Shown here in pieces: positions 12,486 through 35,786 of a stretch of 64,000 nucleotides of DNA. Under the pieces are notes generated by a model. The model worked only from the letters and a program-made list of their open reading frames with translations. It made no database searches and was not told the origin of the DNA. Source of the DNA: a virus; the IMG/VR virus record IMGVR_UViG_3300010399_000035, positions 21,036 to 85,035 of that record; one strand, 5' to 3'. The position numbers were made by a program, and so were the translations under genes. Each line of letters opens with the position of its first letter. The first letter of the stretch is position 1.

Positions 12486-13238
12486 TTACTCTATGTAGGC
12501 GGCTTCCCCGAAGGCTTGCGCCATGTACGGTGGAACGCCGTTGCCTATAGCACGATATAGCTCAATCTCCCACTTGGTATATGAGCCTTCGAACCACGTA
12601 GGTTTCCTGTACCACTGCTTGGGAATCTCGAAGCCCATGTAGTAGGCGCACTCTTCAAGAGTAGGTTTGCGGCCGAACCAACGAGAAGCACGGCGACCGT
12701 CGGTAGCGCACCCCTTATACTCCGTAGCGCCAATTCCAGGACAGAGATCGTATTCGTGATAGTATCGCTTGTAAGGCCTATGAACCTGTGGCTCTGGATA
12801 CCTACCCCCAATGATACGGTTCCGGCACATGTTGGGCGTTGGGAGGAATTGAGCAGCGTTGTAGGCTCTACCCCATGTATTGCCGCTCTTGTGCTGTGTA
12901 GTCACGTTCTCTACCCAAAGAAGTGGATGCGGAAGCTGAAGCGAATACTCCAATAGGTCCGTCATATCTCGCGTGAAGGCTATCCCAGCAAAGTCACCTG
13001 TAGGAACTCCGGCTGTTCGCGATGATGAACGCCACTGACAAGGCGGGGAGGCCCAAATTCCTTCGTATCCCGATAGGTCTTGATCCAGCACATCCCCAAT
13101 AATACACTCGCCAGCGCCAACGAATGTAGAAAGGTAGTGGGCGATCGGGTTGAGTTCAATACCTACACAGAAGTGGCCAGCCCACTCCAAACCTTGGCGA
13201 GCCAGCCCAGCGCCGTCGAAGAGAACCGCTATTTTCAT
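12486..13238 (-). CDS. DNA (cytosine-5)-methyltransferase, compact
   Basis: Motif I LFDGAG, motif IV SPPCQ, motif VI ENV, motif VIII RNR, motif X GNGVPP. Confidence 0.85.
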   Translation of the reverse strand: MKIAVLFDGAGLARQGLEWAGHFCVGIELNPIAHYLSTFVGAGECIIGDVLDQDLSGYEGIWASPPCQWRSSSRTAGVPTGDFAGIAFTRDMTDLLEYSLQLPHPLLWVENVTTQHKSGNTWGRAYNAAQFLPTPNMCRNRIIGGRYPEPQVHRPYKRYYHEYDLCPGIGATEYKGCATDGRRASRWFGRKPTLEECAYYMGFEIPKQWYRKPTWFEGSYTKWEIELYRAIGNGVPPYMAQAFGEAAYIE

Positions 13239-13791: not shown

Positions 13792-15948
13792 TCATTCAGC
13801 CCTCCGTACCTTCACTCTCCTAATTCCAGGCTTCGTAACAGGCGTGGCCTTCTTCAATCCAGCCGCTTCCCACAGATTCACTATATGGTCCGTAGCCCCA
13901 TATAAGTAACGCGGAGCGCCCCGCCCAAATGGATTCTCCGTGCGGGTCTTGGTGACTGCTCCCAGAAGATAGAGGTCTTCCAGTTGGTCGCGCAATGTTG
14001 AGAGGGGAATATCCAACTTCTCGCAGAGCGGTTCGATGAAGAAGTCTCCGTCATTACAGAATGCGGCCACCGCTTCCAGATTAAACCCCACGCAAGTATC
14101 CAAGGCTACGCGACTTACGATAGAGTAGTTGTCTTCGTCCAGCTTAGGTGTGTGGGACAGCAGCGAGAGCCCGTAGGTTAGCTTAGTCAATTGCTTGCCA
14201 ATGCGGGTACCCATTTCATGCTGGGGACGGTACTGCAACTTCTCTTGCCCGCCCGACCAGGCTCGGTTCACATTAGCGCGAAGGATGCCGACCAGCGAAG
14301 CCAGCGCTACAATCTTCGTGATGAGCCACTCCGGCATGGCGGGTAGCGTATACGGATCTATCTTTACCTCCACGAACCTACGTACGATGTCGTGAAGGTC
14401 CTCGCGCATGCCAATCTCTTGGCCTACGTTGCCTATGGCGGTGCGGATGGCGGCGTCCGCGTTCGGGTTGTGGCCTACTCCCTTGACCAAGTGGAACATC
14501 AAGAACCGCTCGCCAAGGGCTGCGGTTCGCTCACCGAACACGGCATGCGTCACGCCGCTGATCATGTTGAATTGGACTTCGTAGTTGCGCACCAATCCGT
14601 TGCCGTAGTGCTTGGTGACGGAACCGTCGTAGGCTCCGCGTAGGGTGCCGTAGATTTCGTCGCGTTGGGTGGCAGGCAGGTTCAGTATCTCGGTGAAGTC
14701 CTTCAACACGAATGTCTTCTTGTTCAGCCTGGGGAGCAGGGACGGATCCCCACCGCCCCGCGTAGCGAAGCCGCTAACTAGGCTATGCGCCGTCAAGGTA
14801 CTGGCGAAGTAGCAACTAGGGCAGCCGCTGAGAGGCATCAGGAGTTCCGTCTTCGCCGTCCCTGGAGGAGATACGATATGCATCCAGAGCGGATCCCCAC
14901 CGATCTGGTTCGAGAGCACCACGGCGAAGATTAGCTTAAGGCCCGTCACCATATCGTCCGACATCTTCAGGTGCTGCCGGAACACAGATAGTACTTGGTC
15001 GAAGGTTGGGCGTTCGGTGGAATCTGGGGGCGGAAGCGATTCTATATGGGCAGCTTGCTCCGCTTGTTCGTTGATTTGGGCTTCGGAGACATAGATGGTA
15101 ACTAGGGATTGGAGTTCCTGGTAGGTACCTCCGCTAACCACAAAGTCGCGGATGTCGAACTTATTAGGAAGAGAGGATGGCCACTTGACATGAAGGAAAT
15201 CTTTGGCATGTCCGGCGAGTTTGCCGGCCAAACGATCGGTGCCCTTGACTCCGCCCGCGTCATGGTCGAAGCAGCATATGACGGTCCGCCCCGACACATA
15301 CTCCGACCAACGATCCTTCCATACTCCTGCTCCGGGCACACCAATTACAACGCCTTCAGCGGAGCTCTGCTCCAGAAGATGGCGTAGGGCTATCGCATCC
15401 CATTCACCCTCGCAAACGTAGACAGGTTCGCAAGCCTTGGCTAGGTCCAGCAACGCAGCCAAGTTCCATATAGAGAGTTCCAGACCCCAGATGGACTCTA
15501 GCTTGAAGTCTTCGCCGCACCGACGAAAGTTAACGATTTTTCCGTGGCCATTGTAGATCGGGATGTACCAATGGACGCCATCGTGAACAATGCCAGTTGA
15601 TTGTAGGACTTGCGGTGGTAGGTGGCGGCTAGCGGCTAGTTCGGCTAGCCATTCGGGCACCAGACTAGAACTTAGTTCAGTCCCATTTAGTTGCGCGGTG
15701 GGAGTGGGCTGCGCGTACATGCGGTACCACTCCGCTAAGAACGTATAGGTATTACCGTTCAACCCACAGGAGCCAGCCTTGCAATCCCACTGACCCGTTG
15801 CGGCGTTGATGTACAGCTTCTTGCGTCCTCCACAAAAGAGGCAGTCGCCGTAGTATTCGTCTCCCGCATGATTATCCGCGTGATATTCGAAGCCTAATGC
15901 GATGAACGGTCTAAGTTTGGGAGGAACTTCGGATGAGCTCCTCGCCAT
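13792..15948 (-). CDS. Primase-helicase fusion (Zn finger + Toprim + MCM-like AAA+ ATPase + C-terminal HTH)
   Basis: CLFC...CKAGSC; CEGEWD and FDHD Toprim motifs; Walker A PPGTAKT; start moved to 15948 because of a GGAGG RBS. Confidence 0.8.
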   Translation of the reverse strand: MARSSSEVPPKLRPFIALGFEYHADNHAGDEYYGDCLFCGGRKKLYINAATGQWDCKAGSCGLNGNTYTFLAEWYRMYAQPTPTAQLNGTELSSSLVPEWLAELAASRHLPPQVLQSTGIVHDGVHWYIPIYNGHGKIVNFRRCGEDFKLESIWGLELSIWNLAALLDLAKACEPVYVCEGEWDAIALRHLLEQSSAEGVVIGVPGAGVWKDRWSEYVSGRTVICCFDHDAGGVKGTDRLAGKLAGHAKDFLHVKWPSSLPNKFDIRDFVVSGGTYQELQSLVTIYVSEAQINEQAEQAAHIESLPPPDSTERPTFDQVLSVFRQHLKMSDDMVTGLKLIFAVVLSNQIGGDPLWMHIVSPPGTAKTELLMPLSGCPSCYFASTLTAHSLVSGFATRGGGDPSLLPRLNKKTFVLKDFTEILNLPATQRDEIYGTLRGAYDGSVTKHYGNGLVRNYEVQFNMISGVTHAVFGERTAALGERFLMFHLVKGVGHNPNADAAIRTAIGNVGQEIGMREDLHDIVRRFVEVKIDPYTLPAMPEWLITKIVALASLVGILRANVNRAWSGGQEKLQYRPQHEMGTRIGKQLTKLTYGLSLLSHTPKLDEDNYSIVSRVALDTCVGFNLEAVAAFCNDGDFFIEPLCEKLDIPLSTLRDQLEDLYLLGAVTKTRTENPFGRGAPRYLYGATDHIVNLWEAAGLKKATPVTKPGIRRVKVRRAE

Positions 15949-16973
15949 TAGATAGTTGCTCCCTCCAAAAGTAGACCGCACTCGCGCAACTTGTCCAGCA
16001 GATAGGTGCCCATGCAATCGTCTACCAACTTCATAGTGGTGCCGAGTTCGTCATACGAAGAAATCCACGAAGGCTTGAGCGGCTCCGGGAAGTACATCTT
16101 GGCTCCCTCAATCCACCCTTCGCGAATCCACCGACCAAGCTGCTCAGCGGAGGGACGGTCACGGAGGGCTAGCTGGGCAAGGTCGGATAGCGTCAAGCCG
16201 GTATTCTTCTGAACTTGAACCACGCGATCATCCCATAGGGACTGCATGCGGAAGTCCTTCACGTTCGTCACCGGCAACTCTAGGCCAATGTGCTGCGCGC
16301 ACCACTTCTCGACTACATCCCTGGCCTTAGAAGCATCGCGGGTGGGGTCGTCGCGGACGGATACCCGACTGGTGAAGATCCGCACGTCGTGGCCGCTGCA
16401 AACCCACTCGCGCACCCTAGAGACCATAAGCGGGATCGGTTCGCCAATGTAGTTGATACCTTTCCAAGAATCATACTCGGCCAAGGTACCGTCGAGGTCT
16501 ACACCAATCCAACCATGCCGCTTGACCATCTCTCCCAGAAAAACCGGAGCTCCATTTTTCTGGGCAGCATTCACCGCGTACTGCTGGAGGTTATGGAGAG
16601 TGTGGTTTGGGTCAGTGGGGTGGGGTTTGGCTTCCATCCACAAATAGACATCCTTGGCTCCTTCCACTTCGCGGAGGTAGCTACAGAACTTGGCTAGGTC
16701 CAAGCTGGGGCGGACTACATTCTCAGGCTGGAGGAAGTATGGCTTGGTGAGGGCGAACATCTTCGTGGTGCCCGAAGGCGTCCACATGAGCATCTGGTGC
16801 ATGCGGTCCGAACGGACCTTGCGAATGGCGAACAAGCAGCCATCATACTGCCCGACGCCGCTGGTAATCTGGAAGCGATGGTCGGCTTCCTCGAGTTGGA
16901 TGCCTTTTGGCTGTGGGGTGGGGGCGGGCTGCGGGGTTTCGGTGGACTCGGTTGAACTAGTTGTCTGACACAT
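15948..16973 (-). CDS. HAD-superfamily phosphatase domain protein
   Basis: VDLDGTLA motif I, FTSR motif II, K and WDDR motifs III/IV; N-terminal part unknown. Confidence 0.75.
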   Translation of the reverse strand: MCQTTSSTESTETPQPAPTPQPKGIQLEEADHRFQITSGVGQYDGCLFAIRKVRSDRMHQMLMWTPSGTTKMFALTKPYFLQPENVVRPSLDLAKFCSYLREVEGAKDVYLWMEAKPHPTDPNHTLHNLQQYAVNAAQKNGAPVFLGEMVKRHGWIGVDLDGTLAEYDSWKGINYIGEPIPLMVSRVREWVCSGHDVRIFTSRVSVRDDPTRDASKARDVVEKWCAQHIGLELPVTNVKDFRMQSLWDDRVVQVQKNTGLTLSDLAQLALRDRPSAEQLGRWIREGWIEGAKMYFPEPLKPSWISSYDELGTTMKLVDDCMGTYLLDKLRECGLLLEGATI

Positions 16974-17008
16974 AAATATAGGCTCCTTCTACGGCTTATC
17001 CGACTTGG

Positions 17009-19162
17009 CTATACGTCGATCGCTACCTTATCATCCCAGGACGACACGCAACGCTTAAACTCAACCGGCATGGGGACATCAATGCGGCCTTCGTTGTCGG
17101 ACATGATATCAATCATGCCGCGAACCAGCCAACGGTAGGCATCTTCCTGGTGTACTTCGAAGATGATTTCGTCATGCACTGGCATGACAACGTAGGCGCG
17201 AGCGCCAACCTCCTTGAAGTACTTCTCGCACCGGACCATGGAATCCTTCACCATACAGGCTGCGGTGGATTGAATCATGTAGTTGACCGCTTTGTAAGGC
17301 TTATCTTCCTCGATGTGAACCTTACGACCGTATGGGTTCACGATGTACCCATCCCGCGATGCTTGCTTGATGAGCATATCCATATACTGCCGCATCTCTG
17401 GGAGCGCTCCGCTCAGTTCGCGGAGGAATTGGGTGGCTTCCTGGAGCGAACAGTAGAGGAGCTCCGTAATGGTGCTTGGCCCTCCACCATAGATCATAGC
17501 GAACATGATGACTTTTGCTCGACCCCGACTGTTACTCTTGCCGACGGACTTCTCTGCCTTGACGATGTCGTAGTTATGTCTGGCCAGAAAATGGTCCGCC
17601 AACTCCTGGGAGCGTTGGGAGTAGAATCCATAGGTCATAGCGGCCTTGGAGTTCCACTCATACTCCTGCCAGAGCGCGGCCACTTCTGGGGACGAAGGTT
17701 CGTTTCGACCTAGGTCCAGCGCATACGAAGCCGCCTTCAACGCGGAGGGATTGTTGCGCCCACCCCAAGCCTTGTTTGCGCAAGCGGAGTTGGGGTCTCG
17801 TCCGGCGGATATCTCTTGGAGTAGGAAGGGGATTTGCCCAATGGAGGCGAAGAGACGCAACTCCTGCTGTGCATAATCTCCAGCGTACCAGACGTGACCA
17901 GCACGAGGGCCGAAAGGTATCCTTGGACGATAAGAACCAATGTTCGCGTGTGCTGTCTTCGGGTTACCGACTTGCTGTAAGTTCGGATTGTTGCAACTGA
18001 GCCGGAACGTGGTAGTTCCGCATTGATTCACCGATGGGTGGACGCACATACCTCCCGGTGCCAGCGGGTCCGGCAGCATGAGTTCAAGATACTTATCGAA
18101 GAAGAGTTTGATCGCCTGCTCCGCAGCCCGGTAGCCTACGAGCTCCAACACGAACGGTTCCGTCATGAGTTCGCGGAGGGCATTCTTGTCGGTGGAATAT
18201 TCGCCGCTGTCCGATGTTCGCGTGGTCGTTAGGCCTAATCCACCTTGCTCTGGCGGGTTGTACAGCAAGCGGCGAAGCTGAAGCGGAGAGTTGGGATTGA
18301 ATACCAAGTCTTCAAGACTAACTACAGTGGCATATGCTTCTGGACTGTGCGGCCGCAGCCCTTTCTCTTCAATCATCCGCAACATCGATTGATGGTGCTT
18401 GTTCAACGCCGTTCGTGCCTTGGCCAATTCCTCTTTGACTTTTTCTGGTGAGAGTCGCATCCCTCGGCGTTCCAACTTCACCATGATCGGCCAGAGTTCA
18501 CGCTCCGCCTCGTACCCCGCTGCCAGCAGAGGATCGTTGGCGAACTTCTCCTGATAGTAGAGATGTAGCCCCATGGTACGGAAGGTATCCATGCGACAGT
18601 ACTGCTCGCAGCCTTCGGAATCCAGATTGAAGCACTTAGGGAGCCAGTAGTCCTGTTCCGCTACTTCGCCAAGTTTAATTAGCGGAGAGTTGGTTTTAGC
18701 AGCTTGCCGATTGAGCGATTGGCAATGTCGCCGCCACTTCTTCACTTCCTCGCGAAGGGTAGACTCATCGTCGATCGGGATGCCGAGATACTTGCGGGCG
18801 AGCGGCTTGAGTTGGTAGGTATACTCCAGATTGTAAGCCACGCGGGCCTCAATGTGGGTGTCGTGGATTGGCCCGGCCATGGGGATACCCAGTGTCTCCA
18901 GCATGAAGCAGTCGAACTTCGCATTATGGAAGATTTTCGGTAAGTCGCTCCGGGCACACAGTGCCCGAAGCCACTCTATATCTTCTTCCACCACTTCTGG
19001 TTCCCTGGTATACGGATCCACACCCCACTCCACATAAGCGGTGTTGCCATCTTGATCGCACAGTCCCACGGCGAACGGCTTATCGCCGTGCCAATGCATA
19101 ATTCCGCTTGTTTCGGTGTCTATGGCGACAGCTTCGGTTGGGTTGAACTTGCCTATGTCCAT
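17009..19162 (-). CDS. polA: DNA polymerase family A with 3'-5' exonuclease domain
   Basis: DTETSG, HNAKFD, YCRMD exo motifs; DYAQQELR (A), RAKVIMFAMIYG (B), VHDEI (C). Confidence 0.95.
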   Translation of the reverse strand: MDIGKFNPTEAVAIDTETSGIMHWHGDKPFAVGLCDQDGNTAYVEWGVDPYTREPEVVEEDIEWLRALCARSDLPKIFHNAKFDCFMLETLGIPMAGPIHDTHIEARVAYNLEYTYQLKPLARKYLGIPIDDESTLREEVKKWRRHCQSLNRQAAKTNSPLIKLGEVAEQDYWLPKCFNLDSEGCEQYCRMDTFRTMGLHLYYQEKFANDPLLAAGYEAERELWPIMVKLERRGMRLSPEKVKEELAKARTALNKHHQSMLRMIEEKGLRPHSPEAYATVVSLEDLVFNPNSPLQLRRLLYNPPEQGGLGLTTTRTSDSGEYSTDKNALRELMTEPFVLELVGYRAAEQAIKLFFDKYLELMLPDPLAPGGMCVHPSVNQCGTTTFRLSCNNPNLQQVGNPKTAHANIGSYRPRIPFGPRAGHVWYAGDYAQQELRLFASIGQIPFLLQEISAGRDPNSACANKAWGGRNNPSALKAASYALDLGRNEPSSPEVAALWQEYEWNSKAAMTYGFYSQRSQELADHFLARHNYDIVKAEKSVGKSNSRGRAKVIMFAMIYGGGPSTITELLYCSLQEATQFLRELSGALPEMRQYMDMLIKQASRDGYIVNPYGRKVHIEEDKPYKAVNYMIQSTAACMVKDSMVRCEKYFKEVGARAYVVMPVHDEIIFEVHQEDAYRWLVRGMIDIMSDNEGRIDVPMPVEFKRCVSSWDDKVAIDV

Positions 19163-19182
19163 TATATAGTCGATTCGCTAGT

Positions 19183-19235
19183 CGCGGAGCATCTCTCCCA
19201 GAGAATGGGCCATCCTCTGGCAGAGGCGCTCCGCG
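19183..19235. repeat. Fused dyad of motif A
   Basis: CGCGGAGCATCTCTCCCAGAGAATGGGCCATCCTCTGGCAGAGGCGCTCCGCG, just upstream of polA. Confidence 0.9.
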
Positions 19236-19241
19236 TGCCAC

Positions 19242-19559
19242 CTATAGTACCCAGAACTTATCGTACAATGCTAGTGCGCTCGCCCGTTCGTCGAGCGTCA
19301 TAGCCCGAAGTAGGTTAATACACCGCTGGCACACGTCGGCAAGATGGGTGGATTCTGTCGGGTCGGTTCGCGCTTGGTTAACCTGCTGCTGGCAGAAGTC
19401 TAGGTGATCATCTTCGAGGTTCCAGTCGTCGATCACGATATGTAAGTGGCCACCTGTACTGTGTAAATTGTATACCTCAGCAATTGCGGTGGCCGATTGG
19501 TATACCAAGGTGTTGTCGAGCATAGGAGCGCCATACTTCTGCCAGCAGCCGTAGCACAT
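19242..19559 (-). CDS. Hypothetical protein
   Basis: MCYGCW start overlapping the SDR stop; GGHLHIVIDDWN motif. Confidence 0.6.
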   Translation of the reverse strand: MCYGCWQKYGAPMLDNTLVYQSATAIAEVYNLHSTGGHLHIVIDDWNLEDDHLDFCQQQVNQARTDPTESTHLADVCQRCINLLRAMTLDERASALALYDKFWVL

Positions 19560-20314
19560 TAGACGCCCATCCCTCCCGGCATAGTCAGTACGGTGCCGGA
19601 GCACTGTTCGGGCAGACTGTTCACGGCGAAGTCGTACAGCTTCCAGACTTCCTCGAAAGTACATCCGCGTCCGAATGGGCTCTGGGAGAAGTACTTGGTG
19701 GCTTGCTCTTCGGACATGCCCCGCGTCCGCTGGAGCTCACGGATGGCTTGCGCCTTCATCTCCGTGTCGTCAATGCCGCCAGGGGCGATGGAGCACACAA
19801 CGATGGGCAACCGCCCCGCGAACTCCTTCGCGAAGACCTTCGTCAAGGCATCCAGTCCAGCCTTCGAAGCACAGTACCCAGGGCTAGCTCGGAGGCTAAT
19901 TTTGGTGCCCATGGACGAAGTGTTCACAATGCGGCGAAGTCGTTCTCGGGGGACGGATTCGTCGTTTTTAACTCGACGGGCGAATTCCCGGCAGAAAAGG
20001 AACGGAGCCACCAGGTTCACATTTAAAACGGCGCTGAAATCCCCCAAGGAATGGTTCTCGAGGAAGTCGATCTTGGTCATGCCTGCATTGTTAATGAGGA
20101 CGTCGATTGGGCCACCCATGGAAGCTTCAGCCTGGTCGAAGATGTGGTTAAGTTCTTCTTCGAACGAGTATGGTTCGGGGTAGGTGGCGTTGAAGTCGCT
20201 CTCGAAGTCCGGTCCGCCCAAGCCCACGCCGAACACCTCATGCCCTTGCTCCAGCAGTCGTTCCCGGATATAGGCTCCAATGCTGCGCGAGCAGCCTGTC
20301 ATTAAGATTCTCAT
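19559..20314 (-). CDS. Short-chain dehydrogenase/reductase (SDR)
   Basis: TGCSRSIG Rossmann motif, INNAG, catalytic YCASK. Confidence 0.9.
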   Translation of the reverse strand: MRILMTGCSRSIGAYIRERLLEQGHEVFGVGLGGPDFESDFNATYPEPYSFEEELNHIFDQAEASMGGPIDVLINNAGMTKIDFLENHSLGDFSAVLNVNLVAPFLFCREFARRVKNDESVPRERLRRIVNTSSMGTKISLRASPGYCASKAGLDALTKVFAKEFAGRLPIVVCSIAPGGIDDTEMKAQAIRELQRTRGMSEEQATKYFSQSPFGRGCTFEEVWKLYDFAVNSLPEQCSGTVLTMPGGMGV

Positions 20315-20667
20315 TCTTTCCGTTCCCTTCTAGTGTCTACCTGCTTCGACAAGCGGGAGAAATTCTCCATATCGTCGTAGGTGTCTTCGTTGTAGTCGTA
20401 CGGTCGAGCCGCACGGACAGCCTTGATCATGACCATGACCAATCCCGCTACATGTGGCGGAATGGCGTGTGGTAGCTTGATGTTGTAGTGTGCCTCGATG
20501 AGTCCAGTGAGCGCGATGCCCGTAGCGCGGAAGGAGTCGTTGGCGTCGCCGTAGACCTTGGACCTCTCGGCGGTGATGGCGTCTAGCTTTCCGTTGCCAT
20601 TTAAATTGCGTTTAGAGCCATTTACAGGCGACTTGGGCGGTTTGGCGAAGGAAGCGCTGTGGCTCAT
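20311..20667 (-). CDS. DUF6378-like protein (putative all-alpha nucleotide pyrophosphatase-like)
   Basis: R-x3-YG-x4-F ... M-x3-K-x2-R ... DTYDD pattern, recognised from memory. Confidence 0.6.
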   Translation of the reverse strand: MSHSASFAKPPKSPVNGSKRNLNGNGKLDAITAERSKVYGDANDSFRATGIALTGLIEAHYNIKLPHAIPPHVAGLVMVMIKAVRAARPYDYNEDTYDDMENFSRLSKQVDTRRERKE

Positions 20668-21899
20668 GATTGGTCTCCTGGAAGGCCATTCATGGCGTCG
20701 AAGCCCCACACTTCGGAGAACTTGGCCGCGTTACGTTCCAGCATCTCGGCTTCGACGGGTCGGGTGGGGGTCCAGTTGCGGATATCCTTCGCCTGCTCAA
20801 GGTCATCTCGACCGTTACGCGCCATCCAAGCTGGGTTGTCTATTCCGCTAACTTTTCCGGAGAGCGCATCGTCTACAGCCTGCAGTGCCTCTTCCGTCTG
20901 ATATCGTATGAAAATGGGGCAAGGTGGCATACCATCACTACCCTGGATCCGCTCCACATTCGTCCCGGCGACGGGGCAGCCAACGTACTTCCCCTTCTTG
21001 ATGCACTTGGGCAAGCCTACCACCGCGAAGAGCGGATCGACTTCCACCAAGCATTTGCGCATGCCCATGATGACAGGTTCCCAAAGGCCAGCCTGTGCGA
21101 CCCAAGATGCGCGCTTCCCCAGAATATGGATCATCGCGGCCAGATTCACGCTCCACGTGATGTCTCCGGTGGCACCGACGGGGACGAGTTGGCGGCAGTC
21201 TTCGATGTGGACTCCTGCTTTCTGCAACTTGCGGTATGCGTCCTGTAGCTGCTTCATTACATCCCGGTAGAACTTCTCCGCCGGAATTGGCGCTGGTACC
21301 CAACCATTCTCTCCGTCGTGGACGTGGTTCTCTACCATCTTCCCCTTCAACGACTCCGGCACTATGTACCGACCTTCGTCGTAGAAGGTATCGAATGGGA
21401 TTACACGCGAGGTCTGCGCCCACCAACTCGAATCGTGGAAGTTGGGAATCTGGTCCATGTGCTGCAACCCCTCCCCAGCCAATAGGTGCTGTATGGGTTC
21501 GGGGATGATATCCACCCCAACACGCGGATCCAACTTCGTGCCCAGACGATGGCGCACCAACTGTTCGCGGAGGGAGATCGGGATACCTTGCAGATGGAAG
21601 ACGAAGTTGAGGTTCTCTACAACTGGGATGCTCTCGGCGAGGATCATCTCGACTTCGGCGCGGATGGAAGCGGCGCAGTCACGAACTGCGTTGGTATCCT
21701 TATCGAATCCAAGCATTCTACAGTCGGACAGGACTGCATCGTGCTTCCAACCAAAGGTTGGCATTCCGTCCTTACTGGCTTTCAGAATGCTTTCTATATC
21801 CTCGGGGCTCGGCAGTGGCTTGTTCGAGCGCGACTGACGCCAAATGTAGAACAGCGTGCCAACAGGGTGGGATGGGGCGGAGATGAGACTGACTTTCAT
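20664..21899 (-). CDS. Divergent ThyX-like (flavin-dependent thymidylate synthase fold) protein
   Basis: QLVRHR, EDCRQLVP and NLAAM motifs; start set at MKVSL, after an AAGGAA RBS. Confidence 0.75.
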   Translation of the reverse strand: MKVSLISAPSHPVGTLFYIWRQSRSNKPLPSPEDIESILKASKDGMPTFGWKHDAVLSDCRMLGFDKDTNAVRDCAASIRAEVEMILAESIPVVENLNFVFHLQGIPISLREQLVRHRLGTKLDPRVGVDIIPEPIQHLLAGEGLQHMDQIPNFHDSSWWAQTSRVIPFDTFYDEGRYIVPESLKGKMVENHVHDGENGWVPAPIPAEKFYRDVMKQLQDAYRKLQKAGVHIEDCRQLVPVGATGDITWSVNLAAMIHILGKRASWVAQAGLWEPVIMGMRKCLVEVDPLFAVVGLPKCIKKGKYVGCPVAGTNVERIQGSDGMPPCPIFIRYQTEEALQAVDDALSGKVSGIDNPAWMARNGRDDLEQAKDIRNWTPTRPVEAEMLERNAAKFSEVWGFDAMNGLPGDQS

Positions 21900-21955
21900 G
21901 ATTCTCGGTTCCTTTTTAACGGCTTGGCTATCTTCTGGGAGAGATGCTCCGCAGT

Positions 21956-22273
21956 TCACGTAACGGGTACTTTGGCGGCGGAGGTTGGTGGGAAGTCCAT
22001 CCAGCCGTGCTCGACAATACGGACATCCCAGTATTCAGGCATTTCGGCGCACATGAGCTCGGCAGACTCGCGGTCCGCGAAGTGGAGTCCTTTGTTGGGA
22101 TCGGTGGTCCAGCAGACGCCTTGGGTGTGCTGGTCGATCCGCCACGATATGAATCCGGTGACTCCGTTCGGTGTGTCCGCGATTAGTTCCGGAGTGTACT
22201 TGTCCAGGCGCGGTTCGAATGGCGTGCCTTGGAAGTACTGCTCGATCATCCAACAGGTTTGTCCTGGTTCCAT
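21956..22273 (-). CDS. Hypothetical protein
   Basis: 105 aa ORF within the operon. Confidence 0.6.
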   Translation of the reverse strand: MEPGQTCWMIEQYFQGTPFEPRLDKYTPELIADTPNGVTGFISWRIDQHTQGVCWTTDPNKGLHFADRESAELMCAEMPEYWDVRIVEHGWMDFPPTSAAKVPVT

Positions 22274-22305
22274 AATTTCTCTTCTGTGGTTGGGTCGGGT
22301 TGGAG

Positions 22306-22929
22306 TTACAAGCTAATGGAATGCCCTGCCCGCTTCATGATTTCCTTGACGAGCTCCACCGTCTGGTCAACTAAGGGACGGATGAAGTCGTACCGAGGGT
22401 TCATGAATATGGCGGTGTAGTCGCGCATAGTTTGGTAGTTTTCTACCACGGTGGAGTTAGCGTTCGTGACCTCAGCGTAGAGGTAGCTCACCACGGACAG
22501 GTAGTCGGCGAAGGCTACGATGGCACCCTCGTTAGTGGAGTCCTTCGCGTTGGCCCACATTACCGCCATGCGCGTGGCGTAGGTCGGGTCTGGGTAGAGC
22601 ACACTAATGAGGGTCTCTATCTCCTTTTCCGCAGCTGCATCCAACGCATCTTTAAGTTGCGGATTGGAGTATTTGAACGGCCTCTGAAAATCGCCTGTGC
22701 GGGCTTCGTCCATGTCGTGAATCAACGCACGACGGAGCACCTGCAGTTCGTCAACGTCGGTGCGGTGGGTCTCCTTGCGAATCCAATCGCAAATGAACAT
22801 GGAATAGACGGCAACGTACGCGGTGTGCTCTGCAACATTCTCCCGATGCAACACCAAACTGGTCGAATGCCGGTTCACATAGCGAAGCCGGTTCACGTCG
22901 CCCGTCAGCAGTGTTCGTATGTTTAGCAT
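22306..22929 (-). CDS. HD-domain deoxynucleotide phosphohydrolase (YfbR/DatZ-like)
   Basis: R...ENVAEH, LIHDMDEARTGD, FAD motifs. Confidence 0.85.
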   Translation of the reverse strand: MLNIRTLLTGDVNRLRYVNRHSTSLVLHRENVAEHTAYVAVYSMFICDWIRKETHRTDVDELQVLRRALIHDMDEARTGDFQRPFKYSNPQLKDALDAAAEKEIETLISVLYPDPTYATRMAVMWANAKDSTNEGAIVAFADYLSVVSYLYAEVTNANSTVVENYQTMRDYTAIFMNPRYDFIRPLVDQTVELVKEIMKRAGHSISL

Positions 22930-23648
22930 TCGGCCTCCACTTCAACCATACGCGGAGTATCCTCTCCAGAGGAGGGCCCAGTTTCTGGTAGGGTTTCCTG
23001 CTGGGCAGCCCAGGCTTCGCAAACGGACCAGTTGAAGTGTTGGGCCTTCACCGGCAAATTAGCGAGCTCACCACTGATGCCATATACGCTGGTGAGACGG
23101 CTACGATCGTAGATAGAGTTGGGGATGCAGCCGCTGAGTTCGGAGTCCAGGAACAGTGCCAACCTGGAGTACCCAGACAGGAGCCCGTCGCAGCCATGCG
23201 TCAACATAACGTTCAAGTGCTCAGCCTTCTTCGTTGGGTGGAAGCCGACGACAAGCTTGCCTAGTCCTCTGGCCGTACCCATCTCCCAAACTGTACCTGT
23301 GTCGGGGAGTTCGAGCTCCCTTATAGGCACGGTGATATCCACCTTCAAATCGGTGTATTCGCTGTGCTTCGGTTCCAACTTGCAAGCGCAAATGCGCTCG
23401 TTCGGCGGTAACGCATACGCAAGCACCGCCAAGAGCAAATCACACTCCTGGATGGACTGCTCGTTCCAGTTGAAGAGGGGGAGCCAAGCGGCAGGATTCT
23501 TGCGCTGGTCCTTCGGGGGTAGGAAGGGCTCGCTGCCGAGTCGAGGGGAGAGGAATTCGTGTCCGGCAGAGGTGATTATGTCTTCAATTGTGGCAATGAT
23601 GCCGCGTTGGGGCTCGTTGAAGAGCGGTGCGGCTATGTAGATTTTCAT
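22923..23648 (-). CDS. Nucleoside 2'-deoxyribosyltransferase / nucleotide N-glycosidase family
   Basis: IYIAAPLF, CDLLLA, DTGTVWEMG, LNVML motifs. Confidence 0.85.
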   Translation of the reverse strand: MKIYIAAPLFNEPQRGIIATIEDIITSAGHEFLSPRLGSEPFLPPKDQRKNPAAWLPLFNWNEQSIQECDLLLAVLAYALPPNERICACKLEPKHSEYTDLKVDITVPIRELELPDTGTVWEMGTARGLGKLVVGFHPTKKAEHLNVMLTHGCDGLLSGYSRLALFLDSELSGCIPNSIYDRSRLTSVYGISGELANLPVKAQHFNWSVCEAWAAQQETLPETGPSSGEDTPRMVEVEAEC

Positions 23649-23669
23649 TATACTCCTTGAACGGCTTAC

Positions 23670-23702
23670 CCAGGGAGTAGCGCCTACGGCGCTACTCCCT
23701 GG
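23670..23702. other. Perfect 15-bp stem-loop between SSB-like and NDT genes
   Basis: CCAGGGAGTAGCGCC-TAC-GGCGCTACTCCCTGG; no U tract on the minus strand. Confidence 0.7.
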
Positions 23703-23726
23703 TTTAGTTGTGCAACGAACAAACGA

Positions 23727-24470
23727 CTACGCCGTTGGAACTTCCAAACCTTCCGGTTCGACTTCGAGATCGGAGTAAGCCACTTCATGCTTCACGAACT
23801 TTCCGTTCGCGCCCGGCACCTTGATCAGGGCAATCTCGGTATCGTCGTCGAGGGAGTCCACGGTGCCTTCGGTGCGAGCACCGTCCAAGTCGAAGAAGGC
23901 CTTCATGCCCTTGCGGAGCTCTACTTCCTCTGGAGCAGAAGGTGGTTGCTGCGCCGAAGGCGCGGCAGCCGACTGCTGCACACCATTGGAAGTTGCGGGG
24001 GTTGGCCGCTGCACTGGGGCCGGTTCCCCTTCGTCTTCGGCATTGTAGTTGGGGAGCAACTTCACGACCCTTAAGTTCTGAAAGTCGGAGTTGGGTGGGG
24101 TCTTGAGCGTGATCTTCATCACCAGGTGCTGCTCGACGAGATCTTCCAGTACGGTCTCGAGTTGGGTCAGGTCAATAGCGGCAGCATCCACACCTAGTGC
24201 GGAGAGTCGCCACACCAGCGGCTCCAGGCCACGCTGGCCTTCCAAGCCCAAGTACTCGTACTTCGTGGTGCCAGCCTTGTCACCTTCGAGGAAGGTGTAG
24301 CCCCAGCGGATCTGGATCTTACCGGAGTTCTTGGACTCGTCCAAGTCGGCGCTGGTGAGCTCCGCAATGTAGGAGCCGTCCGGTGGGTTCTCGAAGTTGC
24401 CCTTCTTGGCCTTCTCGACGGTTTCGGCCCATTCTTGGTTTGCGTTCTTGAGGAATCTGTTGAGGTTCAT
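23727..24470 (-). CDS. Single-stranded DNA-binding-like protein (DUF669-like)
   Basis: PPDGSYIAELT motif, acidic tail, adjacent to the Sak4-like ATPase. Confidence 0.65.
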   Translation of the reverse strand: MNLNRFLKNANQEWAETVEKAKKGNFENPPDGSYIAELTSADLDESKNSGKIQIRWGYTFLEGDKAGTTKYEYLGLEGQRGLEPLVWRLSALGVDAAAIDLTQLETVLEDLVEQHLVMKITLKTPPNSDFQNLRVVKLLPNYNAEDEGEPAPVQRPTPATSNGVQQSAAAPSAQQPPSAPEEVELRKGMKAFFDLDGARTEGTVDSLDDDTEIALIKVPGANGKFVKHEVAYSDLEVEPEGLEVPTA

Positions 24471-24627
24471 TCCATGTACCCTTTACCTTTTCGTAGGTAT
24501 ACCTTTGCGTAGATTTGTTGACATTGTGGTGCCGGTCGTACAGCTTGAGTGCAGGTAGTTTTTAGGCCCCTCTTCTGGAGAGAGTCTCCGCAGTCCATAG
24601 GTAGTTGTGTGCGCATAGCGCAACCAA

Positions 24628-29453: not shown

Positions 29454-30152
29454 TTACTGAGAACCTTTAGGTAGTGCAGCTGGCGGCATTGGTCCAGGGG
29501 CCATCGCTTCGCGGAGGTCTTCTATATATTGCTGGGTAGCGGCGTCCTTATCCAATTGGCGGACCACCCACGATGGGTGCCGCACGGCGCGTAGCCGGAA
29601 CGTATGGCCGGAACGCTGTGCGATGTTGGGTGCGTAGTCTAGCGGAACTTTGCCGGTTACAATGATGATTCGCGGTTGGAGTAGGCGAACGAGTTCGGTT
29701 AAGCGGGGCGCGCAGGCCTCTATTTCATTATGGTCCGGAGCACGGTTCGCTGGATGGCTGGGGCGGAGTGCCCATGGGCGGCAAGCCAGTAAGTTGGTCA
29801 GGGTATAGGGGGCGGTGTTGCCAGTGGCAGCGATACACTCCCGCAGAAGCTGCCCTGCAGGGCCGACGAAGGGCCGTCCAAGGACGTTCTCCCCAACTCC
29901 GGGCCCTTCGCCGATAAACATGAATGGGGGCTTTAAATCGGCGTGTACACCATATACGGGCGTGGTGGGGGCGGACGTCGTCGCTGTAGTATTCGGTGGC
30001 AGTTCGGCTAGCGGTGGCTGAGCCGGGACCACGATTTCGAACAGCACATGATGCTTCGCGGAGACTCCTAGTGGGCAGCGTTGGCAGGTAGACCACTCAT
30101 TTACGAGCGGTTCAAGGATTGGGAGGGAGCGGAGGATGGTGTCGTTAGACAT
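29454..30152 (-). CDS. Uracil-DNA glycosylase family 4-like protein
   Basis: CQRCPL, FIGEGPG, RPFVGPAG, TNLLACRP, EIEAC and HPS motifs. Confidence 0.85.
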   Translation of the reverse strand: MSNDTILRSLPILEPLVNEWSTCQRCPLGVSAKHHVLFEIVVPAQPPLAELPPNTTATTSAPTTPVYGVHADLKPPFMFIGEGPGVGENVLGRPFVGPAGQLLRECIAATGNTAPYTLTNLLACRPWALRPSHPANRAPDHNEIEACAPRLTELVRLLQPRIIIVTGKVPLDYAPNIAQRSGHTFRLRAVRHPSWVVRQLDKDAATQQYIEDLREAMAPGPMPPAALPKGSQ

Positions 30153-31514: not shown

Positions 31515-31985
31515 CTAATACTTCTTGCCTCCGTCAAGCACTCTATTGGCTGGCTTATGGTCCTCGCGGACGGAGTTGTAGGCCAACTTCTCCGCCATGA
31601 TTTCCGGTAGGTCCGGGGCATATTCGCCCGCCATATCATAGATGCGAATCAAGCAATCGGCAAGTTCGGTGGCGAACATGGAGCGGTGGGGCAGCTTATC
31701 ATCTTGGAGGCCTTTGCGATGGCCTTCCATGGCTTCGGCGAGTTCGCTCACCGTAAGCATGAGCAGTTCGCCAATGTTGCGCTGGAGGGGTTGATGGGTG
31801 TGTGGATCGTTCCACCAACCACAGGCAACCGCATTGCCGTGGCATTGGGCGACTAGGATTTGGGTGGCACCAGAGACCGCGACTGGATCTAGAGCGAAGG
31901 TGCCAGTGGAGGGATCATACGGCGCGGCGTCGAAGCGGTCGGTTTGGTACAGCGGTTGCGAGGCGTTCTCGGTTGTTTCGGACAT
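31515..31985 (-). CDS. MazG-like NTP pyrophosphohydrolase
   Basis: SELAEAMEG...ELADCLIR, a double ExxE/ExxD motif. Confidence 0.8.
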   Translation of the reverse strand: MSETTENASQPLYQTDRFDAAPYDPSTGTFALDPVAVSGATQILVAQCHGNAVACGWWNDPHTHQPLQRNIGELLMLTVSELAEAMEGHRKGLQDDKLPHRSMFATELADCLIRIYDMAGEYAPDLPEIMAEKLAYNSVREDHKPANRVLDGGKKY

Positions 31986-32053
31986 TGTTGATTCCTTTAA
32001 ATAGTGTTCGCCGAGGAGTTCCAGGTATGGATACTCCGATTCAAGTAGCTTTC

Positions 32054-32581
32054 TCACTGTTGATTGAAGTGCCCCTTCAGGTACAGACCCATCCCCACAC
32101 TGTCCGATATATGCTCGTCGAACTTCATGCCTAGCCGATGCTCAATACGTCGATCTACCACCTTCTTCGGCATGGTTCCCTTCCACTCGTTCACTGGAAG
32201 GAAAGAGTAGTACCCACACCTGCTCTGGGCCACTTGGGCCAGGCGACCTACCATCACGGCTAGCTTCACTAGGTCGCCTCGGGTGGCCGTGACCGCTCCA
32301 CCGGACAGCATGAGCGCAGGGTATTCGATGTGCACGATAGTGACTTTGGACTCTTCGGTGCCAGGAAACTGGAGCGAGATCATTAGGTCGGTGAACTGAG
32401 ATATGATGGAGTCACATCGCTCTTCCCAGGTGCCCCCATTCGTCCAAGTATTAGCATGGGCCTTGGCGGGGCGGAAGCAGTCCACGGTTACTGGCGGTAC
32501 TAGGTCGGGCCACAATGGATTACTCCACTGGGCAACTCCGGTGCCGCCTACGCCTGGGTCAACGGTTAGCGTAAAGTACAT
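32054..32581 (-). CDS. RuvC-like Holliday junction resolvase
   Basis: VDPGVGGTGVA, IEYP, WKG...K, DSVGMG. Confidence 0.7.
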   Translation of the reverse strand: MYFTLTVDPGVGGTGVAQWSNPLWPDLVPPVTVDCFRPAKAHANTWTNGGTWEERCDSIISQFTDLMISLQFPGTEESKVTIVHIEYPALMLSGGAVTATRGDLVKLAVMVGRLAQVAQSRCGYYSFLPVNEWKGTMPKKVVDRRIEHRLGMKFDEHISDSVGMGLYLKGHFNQQ

Positions 32582-33761: not shown

Positions 33762-34037
33762 TTACACTCGGAGGCGGTCTCTTCGCCGTCGAACGGCCAA
33801 TAGTACCACTCCCCCAGCTTGATCGCAGCCTTCTTCCTCGCAGAGGTATTCGATAGGGAAGGGCGACGTAAGCGGACCGGACCACTCTCCGTCTACAGCA
33901 CCAAGCAGTATTTCTCCCGTGAGGCCGATTGAAGACACCATCGGGCCATCAGGTGTGCCGAATCCAGAGACGAACACTATTTCAGGTGTGCCGCCTTCTT
34001 CCTTCAACCAGTAGTAGCCGTCTTTAGTGGGTTTCAT
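33762..34037 (-). CDS. Hypothetical protein
   Basis: KPTKDGYYW...WSGP pattern seen in small phage proteins. Confidence 0.55.
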   Translation of the reverse strand: MKPTKDGYYWLKEEGGTPEIVFVSGFGTPDGPMVSSIGLTGEILLGAVDGEWSGPLTSPFPIEYLCEEEGCDQAGGVVLLAVRRRRDRLRV

Positions 34038-35620: not shown

Positions 35621-35786
35621 GCGTTCAGGATATCCCAACCGAATGGATCGTACAAGTCGTAGCCATCCCAGCCTTCCGTGTCGGGCGGAGAGTTCTCTCC
35701 AGAAGACGCGCCCGAATGCTTGGCCCAAACTGCGAGTAGGATGCCGGCGAAGAGCAGAGAGGCAAGCGCGATTAGGAGTGATCGGT

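Follow-up and report, generated by a model that had tools for sequence, protein, structure and literature searches.

Gene order at the polymerase locus

The window analyzed here (64,000 nucleotides, positions 21,036 to 85,035 of the IMG/VR virus record IMGVR_UViG_3300010399_000035, from an uncultured soil phage) carries, in minus-strand order, the genes for NDT, HD, orf105, ThyXL, DUF6378, SDR, orf140 and PolA (Table 1), with intergenic gaps of at most 56 bp or overlaps throughout the run. The near-contiguous series of enzymes beside the polymerase that had been originally predicted is thus borne out, with Pfam matches for NDT, HD, Thy1, DUF6378, SDR and PolA. The genes for a MazG-like pyrophosphatase and a uracil-DNA glycosylase (UDG) lie upstream of this module.

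Table 1. Genes of the module and its surroundings in the window
Product	Coordinates	Strand	Family match
NDT-family protein (nucleoside 2-deoxyribosyltransferase / N-glycosidase fold), 241 aa	22923..23648	(-)	Pfam PF05014
HD-domain phosphohydrolase, YfbR / DatZ-like, 207 aa	22306..22929	(-)	Pfam PF12917
orf105, 105 aa	21956..22273	(-)	none
ThyXL, divergent ThyX-family flavoenzyme, 411 aa	20664..21899	(-)	Pfam Thy1
DUF6378 small helical protein, domain ~aa 44-124	20311..20709	(-)	Pfam PF19905
Classical SDR, FabG-like, 251 aa	19559..20314	(-)	Pfam adh_short
orf140, 140 aa	19242..19664	(-)	none
Family A DNA polymerase with 3'-5' exonuclease (PolA)	17009..19162	(-)	Pfam DNA_pol_A, exo1
Family-4-type UDG (replication module)	29454..30152	(-)	Pfam UDG
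MazG-like nucleotide pyrophosphatase, peripheral, outside conserved module	31515..32057	(-)	phrog_5658

The surrounding genes that had been proposed to assist this module fared unevenly. The UDG is confirmed (Pfam, 85.1 bits) and is conserved in 11 related loci. The MazG assignment holds in part: the protein matches phrog_5658 'pyrophosphatase' (E 2.4e-52) and contains the MazG-like EAxE/D motifs, but it has no Pfam match, PF03819 is absent from the genome, and tblastn over 57 related loci yields no match. The Nudix-like domain finds no counterpart, with no PF00293 match at E<=0.1 across the whole 85-kb record, and the supposed HAD phosphatase (15948-16973) is a weak call, for which Pfam and NCBIfam give no match and PHROG only weak ones (phosphoheptose isomerase, 3e-6; PNK, 2e-5). 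PurZ is indeed missing (no PF00709 match), as is ThyA (PF00303) from the 85-kb record, ThyXL being the sole thymidylate-synthase-like gene. Among the about 70 ORFs scanned in this record, which is an estimated 80% complete, no dCMP deaminase, dUTPase-type or post-replicative hypermodification gene is recognizable and none matches ribonucleotide reductase; no export, resistance or defence-related genes are seen adjoining the module. Neither orf105 nor orf140 matches any Pfam, PHROG or NCBIfam family; in tblastn searches over the 57 related loci, orf105 has no match and orf140 has a counterpart only in the close relative L002 (86% identity). As called, orf140 overlaps the SDR gene by 106 bp, so that its start is probably an internal Met near 19559.

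ThyXL and its conserved partners

Pfam Thy1 matches the ORF at 20664-21959(-) with 60.3 bits, but ThyXL itself starts at the ATG at 21899, which follows an AAGGA ribosome-binding site. The AF2 model (pLDDT 81) matches the ThyX fold in Foldseek (E 1.8e-5), and structure comparison (VIA) gives Z scores of 13.0 for Thermotoga maritima ThyX, 12.7 for Mycobacterium tuberculosis ThyX and 11.7 for PolB. Compared with these ThyX enzymes (TM0449 in T. maritima), ThyXL has the same fold, Pfam family and RHR motif, and keeps the arginines equivalent to R78, R90, R147 and R174; residues Q113, R116, R165, R236 and R263 of ThyXL are invariant across 21 relatives. However, ThyXL is nearly double the length, an insert of 20-40 residues splits the ThyX signature by parting RHR from S-x-R, the Tyr91 position is occupied by Val/Ile, the H178 equivalent is replaced, and a C-terminal extension of about 110 aa contains the invariant C299, C308 and C327. 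Given this split signature, the Cys-rich extension and a score of 49.5 bits against the TIGR02170 equivalog (cut-off 87.9), the original prediction of a divergent rather than standard ThyX stands. The family comprises 235 clusters at 50% identity (E<=1e-30), matches viral and metagenomic DNA only, a scan of 185,579 prokaryote species genomes having yielded none, and has no close copy in cultured phages. Some ThyXL genes contain inserted inteins with HNH endonucleases.

The NDT protein (PF05014, Nuc_deoxyrib_tr, 47.2 bits, E 2.9e-12; N-deoxyribosyltransferase 6evs in PDB, E 2e-9) carries an insert of about 60 aa and keeps, across 16 relatives, the motifs YiAxPxFN, sPR, lPDxGTvxExG (with catalytic Glu122) and NxML. 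Because these are nucleoside-transferase motifs, base exchange or deoxyribose release appears at least as likely a function as the purging of a competitor that had been proposed. The HD protein (PF12917, YfbR-like, 86.3 bits; phrog_7076 'dATP triphosphohydrolase', E 4e-20; PDB matches to YfbR at 7e-7, OxsA at 5e-4 and DatZ at 1.8e-3) has H35, H71, D72, E75, D80 and D142 invariant in 19 relatives. The SDR (103.7 bits) shows all the motifs of a classical SDR (TGxxxxIG, NNAG, S, YxxxK) and reaches no NCBIfam equivalog; its orthologues adjoin DUF6378/ThyXL in 8 metagenomic loci. DUF6378 (31.1 bits; found in 13-19 related loci) is modeled with 4-5 helices (AF2, pLDDT 91). Its assignment as a purging hydrolase does not hold up: this small helical bundle gives only low-Z structural matches (4-5.5) to MazG-like folds and has no conserved metal-binding acidic motif. 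In 30 loci, the gene that immediately follows ThyXL encodes PolA (DNA_pol_A, 189 bits; exo1, 39.6 bits), the presumed consumer of the module's product.

This gene set is more than a chance neighbourhood. L002 retains the neighbourhood at 75-93% amino-acid identity, and of 65 independent HD-anchored IMG/VR contigs, 44 combine NDT, HD and a ThyX-family gene; the backbones of these 44 contain PolA (19), DnaE (8) or others (17). Among the ThyXL-anchored loci, about 30 of 57 show NDT-HD-ThyXL-PolA. Beside the trio lies a variable slot occupied by an SDR, a radical-SAM/SPASM enzyme, an aldo-keto reductase (AKR), a second ThyX paralog or 315-aa unknowns, and several metagenomic loci have two divergent ThyX paralogs within the module. 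In a second context (group B, 24 loci), the order is NT5C-ThyXL-class III aminotransferase-TMK-like, beside DnaE. The varied tailoring slot and this second context represent the kind of variety expected of thymidine-hypermodification clusters, which show combinatorial diversity (Lee et al., PMC8989533).

What the module might make

So what could such a module produce? On the strength of sequence, fold and linkage, we give roughly even credence to a pre-replicative pyrimidine-nucleotide module that would make an altered thymidine nucleotide and feed the phage's own PolA. Under this hypothesis, ThyXL would be a flavin-dependent enzyme of the ThyX fold that binds dUMP, as the retained arginines suggest, and adds a carbon substituent at C5; its most likely product would be a C5-substituted dUMP, with a 5-hydroxymethyl group or a longer sugar-derived chain, rather than plain dTMP. 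The SDR might then tailor this substituent by oxidation or reduction; in other phages its slot is occupied by the radical-SAM enzyme, the aldo-keto reductase or the second ThyX paralog. The HD protein would dephosphorylate deoxynucleotides and the NDT-fold enzyme would act on the resulting deoxynucleosides or nucleotides, so that together they might deplete dT/dU nucleotides that compete with the product, or recycle deoxyribose, or do both; the purging of the competitor that had been proposed for these two is thus putative. Phosphorylation to the triphosphate would be left to host kinases. Substrate and product, the sequence of steps and incorporation into DNA are likewise putative. The original proposal that the ThyX-like protein and the SDR make a non-standard pyrimidine is therefore supported in part, by the divergence of ThyXL, the NDT/HD linkage on unrelated backbones, the relatives with modified DNA and the recurrence of the SDR-ThyX pair, but loses the purging role of DUF6378, the Nudix domain and the poorly matched HAD phosphatase.

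Plain dTMP synthesis combined with deoxynucleotide salvage is a serious rival, which we regard as possible but lean against. Here ThyXL would be a genuine if divergent flavin-dependent thymidylate synthase of the phage type, HD (turning dNMP into dN) and NDT (exchanging bases on deoxyribose) would supply the mix that the phage needs from nucleotides released when host DNA is degraded, the SDR would be an auxiliary reductase (e.g. pterin/folate or flavin related) or unrelated, and virion DNA would be canonical apart from possible 5mC. Several observations count against a modified base, the first and the last of which also fit this scenario: ThyXL is the record's only thymidylate-synthase-like gene and its nucleotide-binding (dUMP-binding) residues are intact, so that it could be the phage dTMP synthase; genes of the dCMP deaminase, dUTPase and post-replicative hypermodification types are not recognized; and the contig was assembled from standard reads of an ordinary metagenome, unlike the DNA of YerA41 and Carin-5, in which bulky hypermodification blocks standard sequencing. 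The one public run that contains the window's DNA is its probable source metagenome, stored as contigs. Phage T5, with canonical DNA, encodes a 5'-deoxynucleotidase, which also speaks against a modified base. Furthermore, the lack of a ribonucleotide reductase match would make salvage useful, the thymidylate-kinase-like and pyrimidine 5'-nucleotidase neighbours in group B are equally compatible with plain dTMP metabolism, and inteins with HNH endonucleases, such as those in ThyXL genes, invade housekeeping-type replication and nucleotide genes. However, dTMP synthesis does not involve enzymes such as the radical-SAM/SPASM, SDR, AKR and class III aminotransferase proteins encoded in the slot, and since the product of the ThyX reaction is tetrahydrofolate, not dihydrofolate, no extra reductase is needed. 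The occurrence of two divergent ThyX paralogs in one module is also hard to accommodate, as is the presence in phages SP-15 and LIS04 of a divergent ThyX with NDT alongside a second, more ordinary ThyX gene elsewhere, and the trio was not found in cultured phages known for canonical DNA.

A small nucleotide or nucleoside that is made or destroyed without ever entering DNA, be it a C5-modified (deoxy)uridine metabolite or a target of nucleotide depletion or signal hydrolysis against host defence, seems improbable. Nucleoside-antibiotic pathways employ PolB (polyoxin) and MilB (mildiomycin), and NDT-fold enzymes include nucleotide N-glycosidases of such pathways; PolB, a UMP/dUMP methylase, is among the top structural matches of ThyXL, and hydrolases of the HD and MazG-like kinds are general-purpose enzymes of the nucleotide pool. 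Nevertheless, on at least three different backbones the module is part of a replication operon and directly precedes the gene for the replicative polymerase, no export, resistance or defence-related genes are seen beside it, and its cultured counterparts are in phages with modified DNA.

Counterparts among cultured phages

The Z-genome triad PurZ/DatZ/MazZ likewise combines a YfbR/DatZ-type HD protein with a MazG-like pyrophosphatase in the replication region, but PurZ is absent here, the DatZ similarity of HD is marginal (21 bits) and the base-forming enzyme would be pyrimidine-directed. The logic proposed for the window's module is also that by which SPO1-type and M6/ViI-type phages make 5-hydroxymethyl-dU in a pre-replicative pathway (ThyA-fold dUMP hydroxymethylase, dTTPase/dTMPase, dNMP kinase), in which a thymidylate-synthase homologue makes C5-substituted dUMP and phage hydrolases deplete thymidine nucleotides (PMC8989533). 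In that pathway, however, the base-forming enzyme has the ThyA fold instead of the ThyX fold, NDT and SDR are foreign to the scheme, and the window's phage has neither a dCMP deaminase nor recognized 5-HMUDK or aGPT-Pplase-type genes.

Homologous modules in cultured phages are confined to SP-15/LIS04, Pbunavirus and, for the HD gene, YerA41/RHph_TM30, all from groups that have, or resemble ones having, hypermodified thymidine. The Pbunavirus PB1-like ThyX (LBL3 gp57) is homologous to the ThyXL profile (99%, E 4e-18), and a pair of cysteines follows its core, but it is 305 aa long, with RTR instead of RHR and no NDT or HD neighbours. In the DNA of the Pbunavirus phages F8 and 14-1, thymidine is hypermodified with sugar-derived groups (PMC12191111); this mark is confined to TG sites, a specificity that argues for a step on DNA and counts against the modified-base reading proposed here. 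Tblastn with HD against cultured phages yields matches that include SP-15, YerA41 and, with the longest alignments, RHph_TM30 and its relatives; these phages belong to the T-hypermodified SP15/RP13-like group, and two of them, YerA41 and RHph_TM30, have HD encoded directly upstream of the polymerase. Vibrio phage 150E35-1 has the order HD - gp130 homologue (BLASTP 1e-30) - NDT - NTP pyrophosphohydrolase.

The closest parallel is found in Bacillus phage SP-15 and Listeria phage LIS04, where the same three enzyme classes lie near replication genes (gp121 NDT and gp124 ThyX-like in LIS04; the HD homologue SP15_090 in SP-15). By profile comparison, LIS04 gp124 is the best cultured homologue of ThyXL (99.9% probability, E 6.6e-34), with the LREQxVR and WxQTSR motifs in common, although the three cysteines are missing from it and its RHR motif reads RSK. 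The positional equivalent in SP-15 is gp130, within the order gp127 NDT - gp129 FabG-like SDR - gp130 ThyX-like, so that the SDR-ThyX pairing of the metagenomic loci recurs in SP-15. The direct alignment of gp130 with ThyXL is not significant (hhalign probability 6.5%), which weighs against a modified base; the tie goes via LIS04 gp124 and synteny. SP-15 and LIS04, myoviruses of 180-220 kb, encode a second ThyX and a split SP15-type PolA and possess sugar-tailoring clusters, whereas in the window's phage a single ThyX-like gene is accompanied by a PolA of ordinary length and by DUF6378, and no glycosyltransferases are recognizable. According to PMC5977210 and the references quoted there, SP-15 DNA contains 5-(4',5'-dihydroxypentyl)uracil, made as the nucleoside triphosphate, and Kropinski et al. 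(2018; PMC5977210) already guessed gp130 to be a hydroxymethyluridylate synthase and listed gp129 as a reductase among the DHPU genes. The original view that the pathway matches no known one should therefore be replaced: the proposal is partly supported, as a module that parallels the uncharacterized one of the SP-15 type.

The replication operon and its gene content

From 35.7 to 13.8 kb, the minus strand of the window carries a single replication and nucleotide-metabolism operon (see the table), in which the flagged genes either overlap or are spaced by no more than 56 bp. The run of genes from the nucleoside deoxyribosyltransferase-like NDT to PolA that was described in the original prediction is borne out by both Pfam matches and coordinates. 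The gene for the divergent 411-aa ThyX-family protein, denoted ThyXL here, starts at the ATG at 21899, with an AAGGA site ahead of it, and not at the upstream GTG. The parent record comprises 85,035 bp, with a completeness of about 80% according to CheckV, and a search of sequencing runs found the window DNA in one soil metagenome, probably its source, for which contigs are stored; a megablast search with positions 17000-24500 yielded no match to cultured phages at the DNA level.

Genes of the minus-strand operon
Gene or product	Position	Strand	Evidence
SNF2 helicase	operon	-	
RuvC-like protein, 175 aa	32054-32581	-	motifs DPGxxxG, ExP, WKG, HxxD
MazG-like pyrophosphatase	31515-32057	-	phrog_5658, E 2.4e-52
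UDG, PD-(D/E)XK nuclease, AAA_24, DUF669	operon, ahead of flagged genes	-	Pfam
NDT family	22923-23648	-	47 bits
YfbR-like HD	22306-22929	-	86 bits
orf105	21956-22273	-	no hit
ThyX-like (ThyXL)	20664-21899	-	Thy1, 60 bits
DUF6378	20311-20709	-	31 bits
SDR	19559-20314	-	104 bits
orf140	19242-19664	-	no hit
PolA	17009-19162	-	
341-aa protein, then primase	after PolA in operon	-	341-aa protein: weak HAD/PNK-like PHROG matches

PurZ, the gene by which a Z-genome (containing 2-aminoadenine) would be recognized, was not visible in the original prediction, and a search with PF00709 indeed found nothing in the 85-kb record (about 80% complete), with the controls positive in 14 of 14 genomes. The record also yielded no ThyA, no dCMP deaminase and no MazG of the Pfam type (PF03819), and the Nudix domain that had been predicted upstream could not be recovered by Pfam. 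The genes of post-replicative 5-hmdU hypermodification, namely 5-HMUDK (a P-loop 5-hmdU DNA kinase) and aGPT-Pplase/AADT, had no Pfam match among the approximately 70 ORFs scanned, in an incomplete record where many ORFs are matchless. Among some 40 further ORFs of the early/replication region and the contig end, the only Pfam matches are to DUF6011, DUF6745, a partial C5-methylase and a receiver domain. The C5-methylase match comes from a 250-aa ORF at 12486-13238(-), whose alignment to the C-5 cytosine DNA methylases (29 bits) is confined to the C-terminal part of that family; the methyltransferase would be truncated or else divergent. The phage-encoded protein with the response-regulator receiver domain is at 59650-60288(+) (39.9 bits), and the early region encodes a DUF6745 protein at 54641-55756(-) (165 bits) and a DUF6011-containing protein at 49797-50831(-). 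GC skew, calculated in 2-kb windows, is unusually strong (0.24-0.36) at 34000-40000, where the ORFs are on the minus strand and have no family match, and drops to about 0.03 at 40-42 kb. Dinucleotide and restriction-site counts reveal neither strong palindrome avoidance nor a TG anomaly, which we judge to be uninformative either way. The 175-aa RuvC-like protein, which has no Pfam or PHROG match, retains its motifs in 17 relatives, where it is encoded between SNF2 and UDG, and is probably a Holliday-junction resolvase.

The divergent ThyX-family protein and its partners

In the AlphaFold (AF2) model of ThyXL (pLDDT 81; alignment of 21 relatives), the first 300 or so residues superpose on ThyX structures in both Foldseek and VIA comparisons. 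The match to T. maritima FDTS has a Foldseek E value of 1.8e-5 with a probability of 1.00, and a VIA Z score of 13.0 (rmsd 2.8 over 196 residues); M. tuberculosis ThyX follows with a Z of 12.7 and the UMP/dUMP methylase PolB with 11.7. The predicted fold is that of ThyX, and the sequence passes the Pfam threshold for PF02511 (60.3 bits vs 24.8) and stays under the cut-off of the NCBIfam equivalog TIGR02170 (49.5 bits vs 87.9). Alignment to TM0449 indicates that the dUMP-binding residues of ThyX correspond to Q113, R116 (of RHR), R165, R236 and R263, none of which varies within the ThyXL family. The contiguous signature RHRxxSxxxxSxR(Y) is not found: RHR is at positions 116-118, and the S-x-R element (T163-S164-R165) comes about 45 residues on, beyond a disordered, low-confidence insert, which is about 45 residues long in this protein and about 20 in the majority of relatives. 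The arginine of this element is followed by Val in ThyXL and by Val or Ile in the family, where ThyX has Tyr. A confidently folded C-terminal extension of about 110 residues carries three invariant cysteines, C299, C308 and C327, the last of these within a PPCP motif. Judging from sequence and model together, ThyXL is not a standard ThyX.

When 1.84 billion representatives were searched with a profile, 235 clusters of ThyXL relatives emerged at E<=1e-30, and no relative was found in the 185,579 prokaryote species genomes scanned, so that the family gives no clue to the host or to a prophage. The long members of the family were considered as potentially informative fusions with partner enzymes and rejected, the extra length being due to inteins with HNH endonucleases inside. 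These inteins split several ThyXL genes at more than one insertion site (metagenomic proteins P0063, P0114, P0129, P0146, P0155, P0160 and P0121).

The neighbouring proteins can be assigned with varying precision. NDT scores 47.2 bits against PF05014 (threshold 28.8), its DTGTVWEMG stretch aligns with the catalytic-Glu motif D-x-G-T-x-x-E-x-G of PDB 6evs, and the transferase-type motifs (Tyr4, Asp116, Glu122 and Asn; N-terminal Y-x-A-x-P-x-F) are kept in 16 relatives; these features place it in the nucleoside 2-deoxyribosyltransferase family, as far as sequence can tell. Its PDB matches are to NDT-type transferases only, with no DNPH1 or MilB entry at E<=1, a result with which membership of the DNPH1/MilB type is still compatible. 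The original prediction counted NDT among the proteins that purge the competitor; given the transferase-type motifs, purging through N-glycosidic cleavage of a monophosphate is neither the sole nor the best-supported role. The HD protein (86.3 bits against PF12917, threshold 25.9) has all the HD metal ligands, with H35, H71, D72, E75, D80 and D142 invariant, and appears to be a YfbR-like enzyme that is closer to YfbR than to DatZ, against which it scores only 21.4 bits; it falls under the equivalog NF003009 (54.5 bits vs 122). The SDR (adh_short, 103.7 bits) contains TGCSRSIG, LINNAG and YCASK, all kept in 8 orthologues, as expected of a classical SDR. The DUF6378 protein is modelled as a confident small helical bundle, with only low-Z VIA matches, among them those to the MazG-type chains 2yxh (4.8), 1vmg (4.4) and S-2L MazZ, 7ody (4.3), several MazG/HisE-type pyrophosphatases being found at Z 4-5.5; there is no Foldseek match at E<=0.001 and no PDB sequence match. 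Its family invariants are R10, Y14, G15, K57, R60, D70 and D74, the EExxE and MazG/HisE acidic motifs are missing, and the small ORF that follows NDT in a Vibrio phage shows no similarity to it.

Distribution of the module and its cultured relatives

Conservation of this neighbourhood in other phages, a check called for by the original prediction, was tested from two anchors, ThyXL and, independently, HD, and was found from both. The ThyXL anchor retrieved 57 IMG/VR loci, about 30 of which keep the backbone and order of the window: SNF2 - RuvC-like - UDG - PDDEXK - AAA_24 - DUF669 - NDT - HD - (DUF6378) - (variable gene) - ThyXL - PolA - primase. A close relative (L002) keeps all flagged genes but orf105 at 75-93% identity. 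The MazG-like gene, which had been counted among the pathway genes, is real; however, tblastn does not match it in any of the 57 related loci, which puts it outside the conserved module. With the HD anchor, 80 contigs were retrieved, and in the 65 with enough flanking sequence NDT is directly upstream of HD in 48, a ThyX-family gene is nearby in 51 (including a further divergent clade recognized as Thy1 by Pfam at 33-64 bits), and the complete trio of NDT, HD and ThyX-family gene is present in 44. With PolA (19), DnaE (8) and other (17) backbones represented among these 44, the trio is a portable unit, and its recurrence does not simply come from one replication module having been inherited in common.

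The slot between HD and ThyXL is variable, being occupied by the SDR in 8 loci and, according to Pfam, by a radical-SAM/SPASM enzyme in 11; other phages have there an uncharacterized 315-aa family or an aldo-keto reductase (L105), and L018, L023 and L042/L057 have a second non-canonical ThyX paralog. The radical-SAM/SPASM enzyme, of about 340 aa, is directly upstream of ThyXL at L013:8775-9797, at L022:8914-9975 and in 9 more loci, which is the place of the SDR in the window. A second context, in which ThyXL is next to a DnaE-type polymerase, is seen in 24 uncultured phage contigs (e.g. L007:8117-12114; also L012, L024 and L026), with genes for a Rossmann oxidoreductase-like protein, an NT5C pyrimidine 5'-deoxynucleotidase, ThyXL, a class III aminotransferase and a thymidylate-kinase-like protein; the aminotransferase match scores 237 bits. 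We know of no role in dTMP synthesis for the additional enzymes of the slot and of this second context. The presence of an omega-transaminase beside ThyXL hints at a C5 substituent that bears an amino group, e.g. 5-aminomethyl-dU, made at the nucleotide level. Such a mix-and-match of enzymes is reported by Lee et al. for thymidine-hypermodification clusters (PMC8989533).

Among 50,697 phage records, the top match to ThyXL is gp124 of Listeria phage LIS04 (tblastn 1e-21; profile comparison 99.9%, E 6.6e-34), which is encoded three genes past an NDT gene in a phage that is classified within the same species as Bacillus phage SP-15. SP-15 itself encodes, at the equivalent position, gp127 (NDT), gp128, gp129 (a FabG-like SDR) and gp130 (a 413-aa Thy1-family protein). 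In SP-15 DNA, about half of the thymine is replaced by 5-(4',5'-dihydroxypentyl)uracil (DHPU), which work quoted by Kropinski et al. (PMC5977210) found to be synthesised as a nucleoside triphosphate and to take up label from ribose. Kropinski et al. count two Thy1 genes in SP-15; their guess is a thymidylate synthase for gp9 and a hydroxymethyluridylate synthase for gp130, and they name the gp129 reductase as a candidate DHPU gene (PMC5977210). Of the features of such a module, the window has the gene set and, in ThyXL, a homologue of LIS04 gp124; ThyXL has no significant similarity to gp130 in pairwise BLASTP or profile alignment, and the SDR and NDT match their SP-15 counterparts weakly (BLASTP E 4e-4 and 1e-3, respectively).

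Vibrio phage 150E35-1 encodes a gp130 homologue (BLASTP 1e-30) between HD and NDT, and the NDT of the window matches no cultured phages other than this one and Vibrio phage 1.031.O. In 150E35-1 (OX241562, 7087-13970), HD, the gp130 homologue, NDT and an 88-aa ORF with an acyl-carrier-like DSLD motif are followed by an NTP pyrophosphohydrolase, a cytidylyltransferase-like protein and a DXD glycosyltransferase; this phage is a good candidate for carrying an undetected thymidine hypermodification. The HD of the window matches RHph_TM30 and its relatives, YerA41 and SP-15, that is, phages of the SP15/RP13-like group in which thymidine is heavily modified (PMC12686479, PMC13697223), and in YerA41 and RHph_TM30 the HD gene is directly upstream of the polymerase. 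Comparison with the ThyXL profile shows homology for the PB1-like 'ThyX', LBL3 gp57 (99%, E 4e-18), and in the DNA of Pbunavirus F8 and 14-1 about one quarter of T is replaced, at TG sites, by thymidine derivatives (362 and 390 Da) that are built from sugars (PMC12191111).

Proposed thymidine replacement and its alternatives

So what could this module be making? The most economical account, on whose correctness we are evenly divided, is that the window genes constitute an SP-15-type pre-replicative thymidine-replacement module, in which ThyXL would place a carbon substituent onto C5 of dUMP, the SDR would tailor this substituent, HD and NDT would change the pool of competing deoxynucleotides or recycle deoxyribose, and PolA would consume the product. 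Should ThyXL instead be merely a diverged thymidylate synthase, with HD and NDT as salvage enzymes, which is the main rival explanation and one that we doubt without dismissing it, the intact dUMP site would be readily understood, as would the lack of any other TS-like gene in the record, the inteins that mark ThyXL as a housekeeping-type target, and the assembly of the contig from ordinary reads, sequencing being blocked by the bulkiest modifications. This explanation has to contend, however, with the ordinary ThyX that SP-15 and LIS04 possess besides the module copy, with the two divergent ThyX paralogs in some loci, and with neighbouring enzymes that would be useless for dTMP synthesis. We consider it unlikely that the module makes a metabolite which stays out of DNA, because the module sits within replication operons on several backbones.

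A more specific chemistry can be envisaged for thymidine replacement, one that we infer with little confidence and consider improbable: the ThyXL-type proteins would be flavin-dependent reductive C5-alkylases, with an open-chain pentose or deoxypentose (phosphate) aldehyde, rather than methylene-tetrahydrofolate, as the donor. The flavin of ThyX can be loaded with a one-carbon unit straight from formaldehyde, which provides a precedent, and 7ndw and 7ndz, ThyX structures with a carbinolamine-flavin, are among the Foldseek matches of ThyXL. The known products of related cultured phages have pentose- or tetrose-like chains, CH2-linked to C5, and by our own arithmetic the mass of the F8 nucleoside, 362 Da, is what reductive alkylation of dU with an aldopentose would give (212 + 150). 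Taken together, the formaldehyde-loaded flavin, the CH2-linked sugar-like chains and the fit of the mass are the reason why ThyXL might use a sugar aldehyde as donor. HD and NDT would then free the sugar from deoxynucleotides, the product of ThyXL would be 5-(polyhydroxypentyl)-dUMP, and the enzyme encoded in the variable position, SDR in the window and radical-SAM, AKR or aminotransferase at other loci, would deoxygenate, oxidise or aminate it. If true, this proposal would bring the ribose-derived DHPU of SP-15, the 362-Da F8 nucleoside and a large family of uncultured-phage modules under one chemical logic.

Thymidine replacement is a main route by which phages escape restriction and CRISPR, and a practical obstacle to sequencing. 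Even if ThyXL only supplies dTMP, a large ThyX clade that is confined to phages and probably has a metal site would have been delimited and a salvage module new to the literature described. The window and about 100 related contigs define a compact, portable trio of NDT, HD and divergent ThyX with a swappable tailoring enzyme, and provide small soluble proteins for testing. To our knowledge, every pathway worked out so far begins with a ThyA-fold dUMP hydroxymethylase, and the trio is a concrete candidate for the first step that is missing for SP-15, YerA41, Carin-5 and the Pbunavirus therapy phages, in the making of their long side chains, which derive from sugars.
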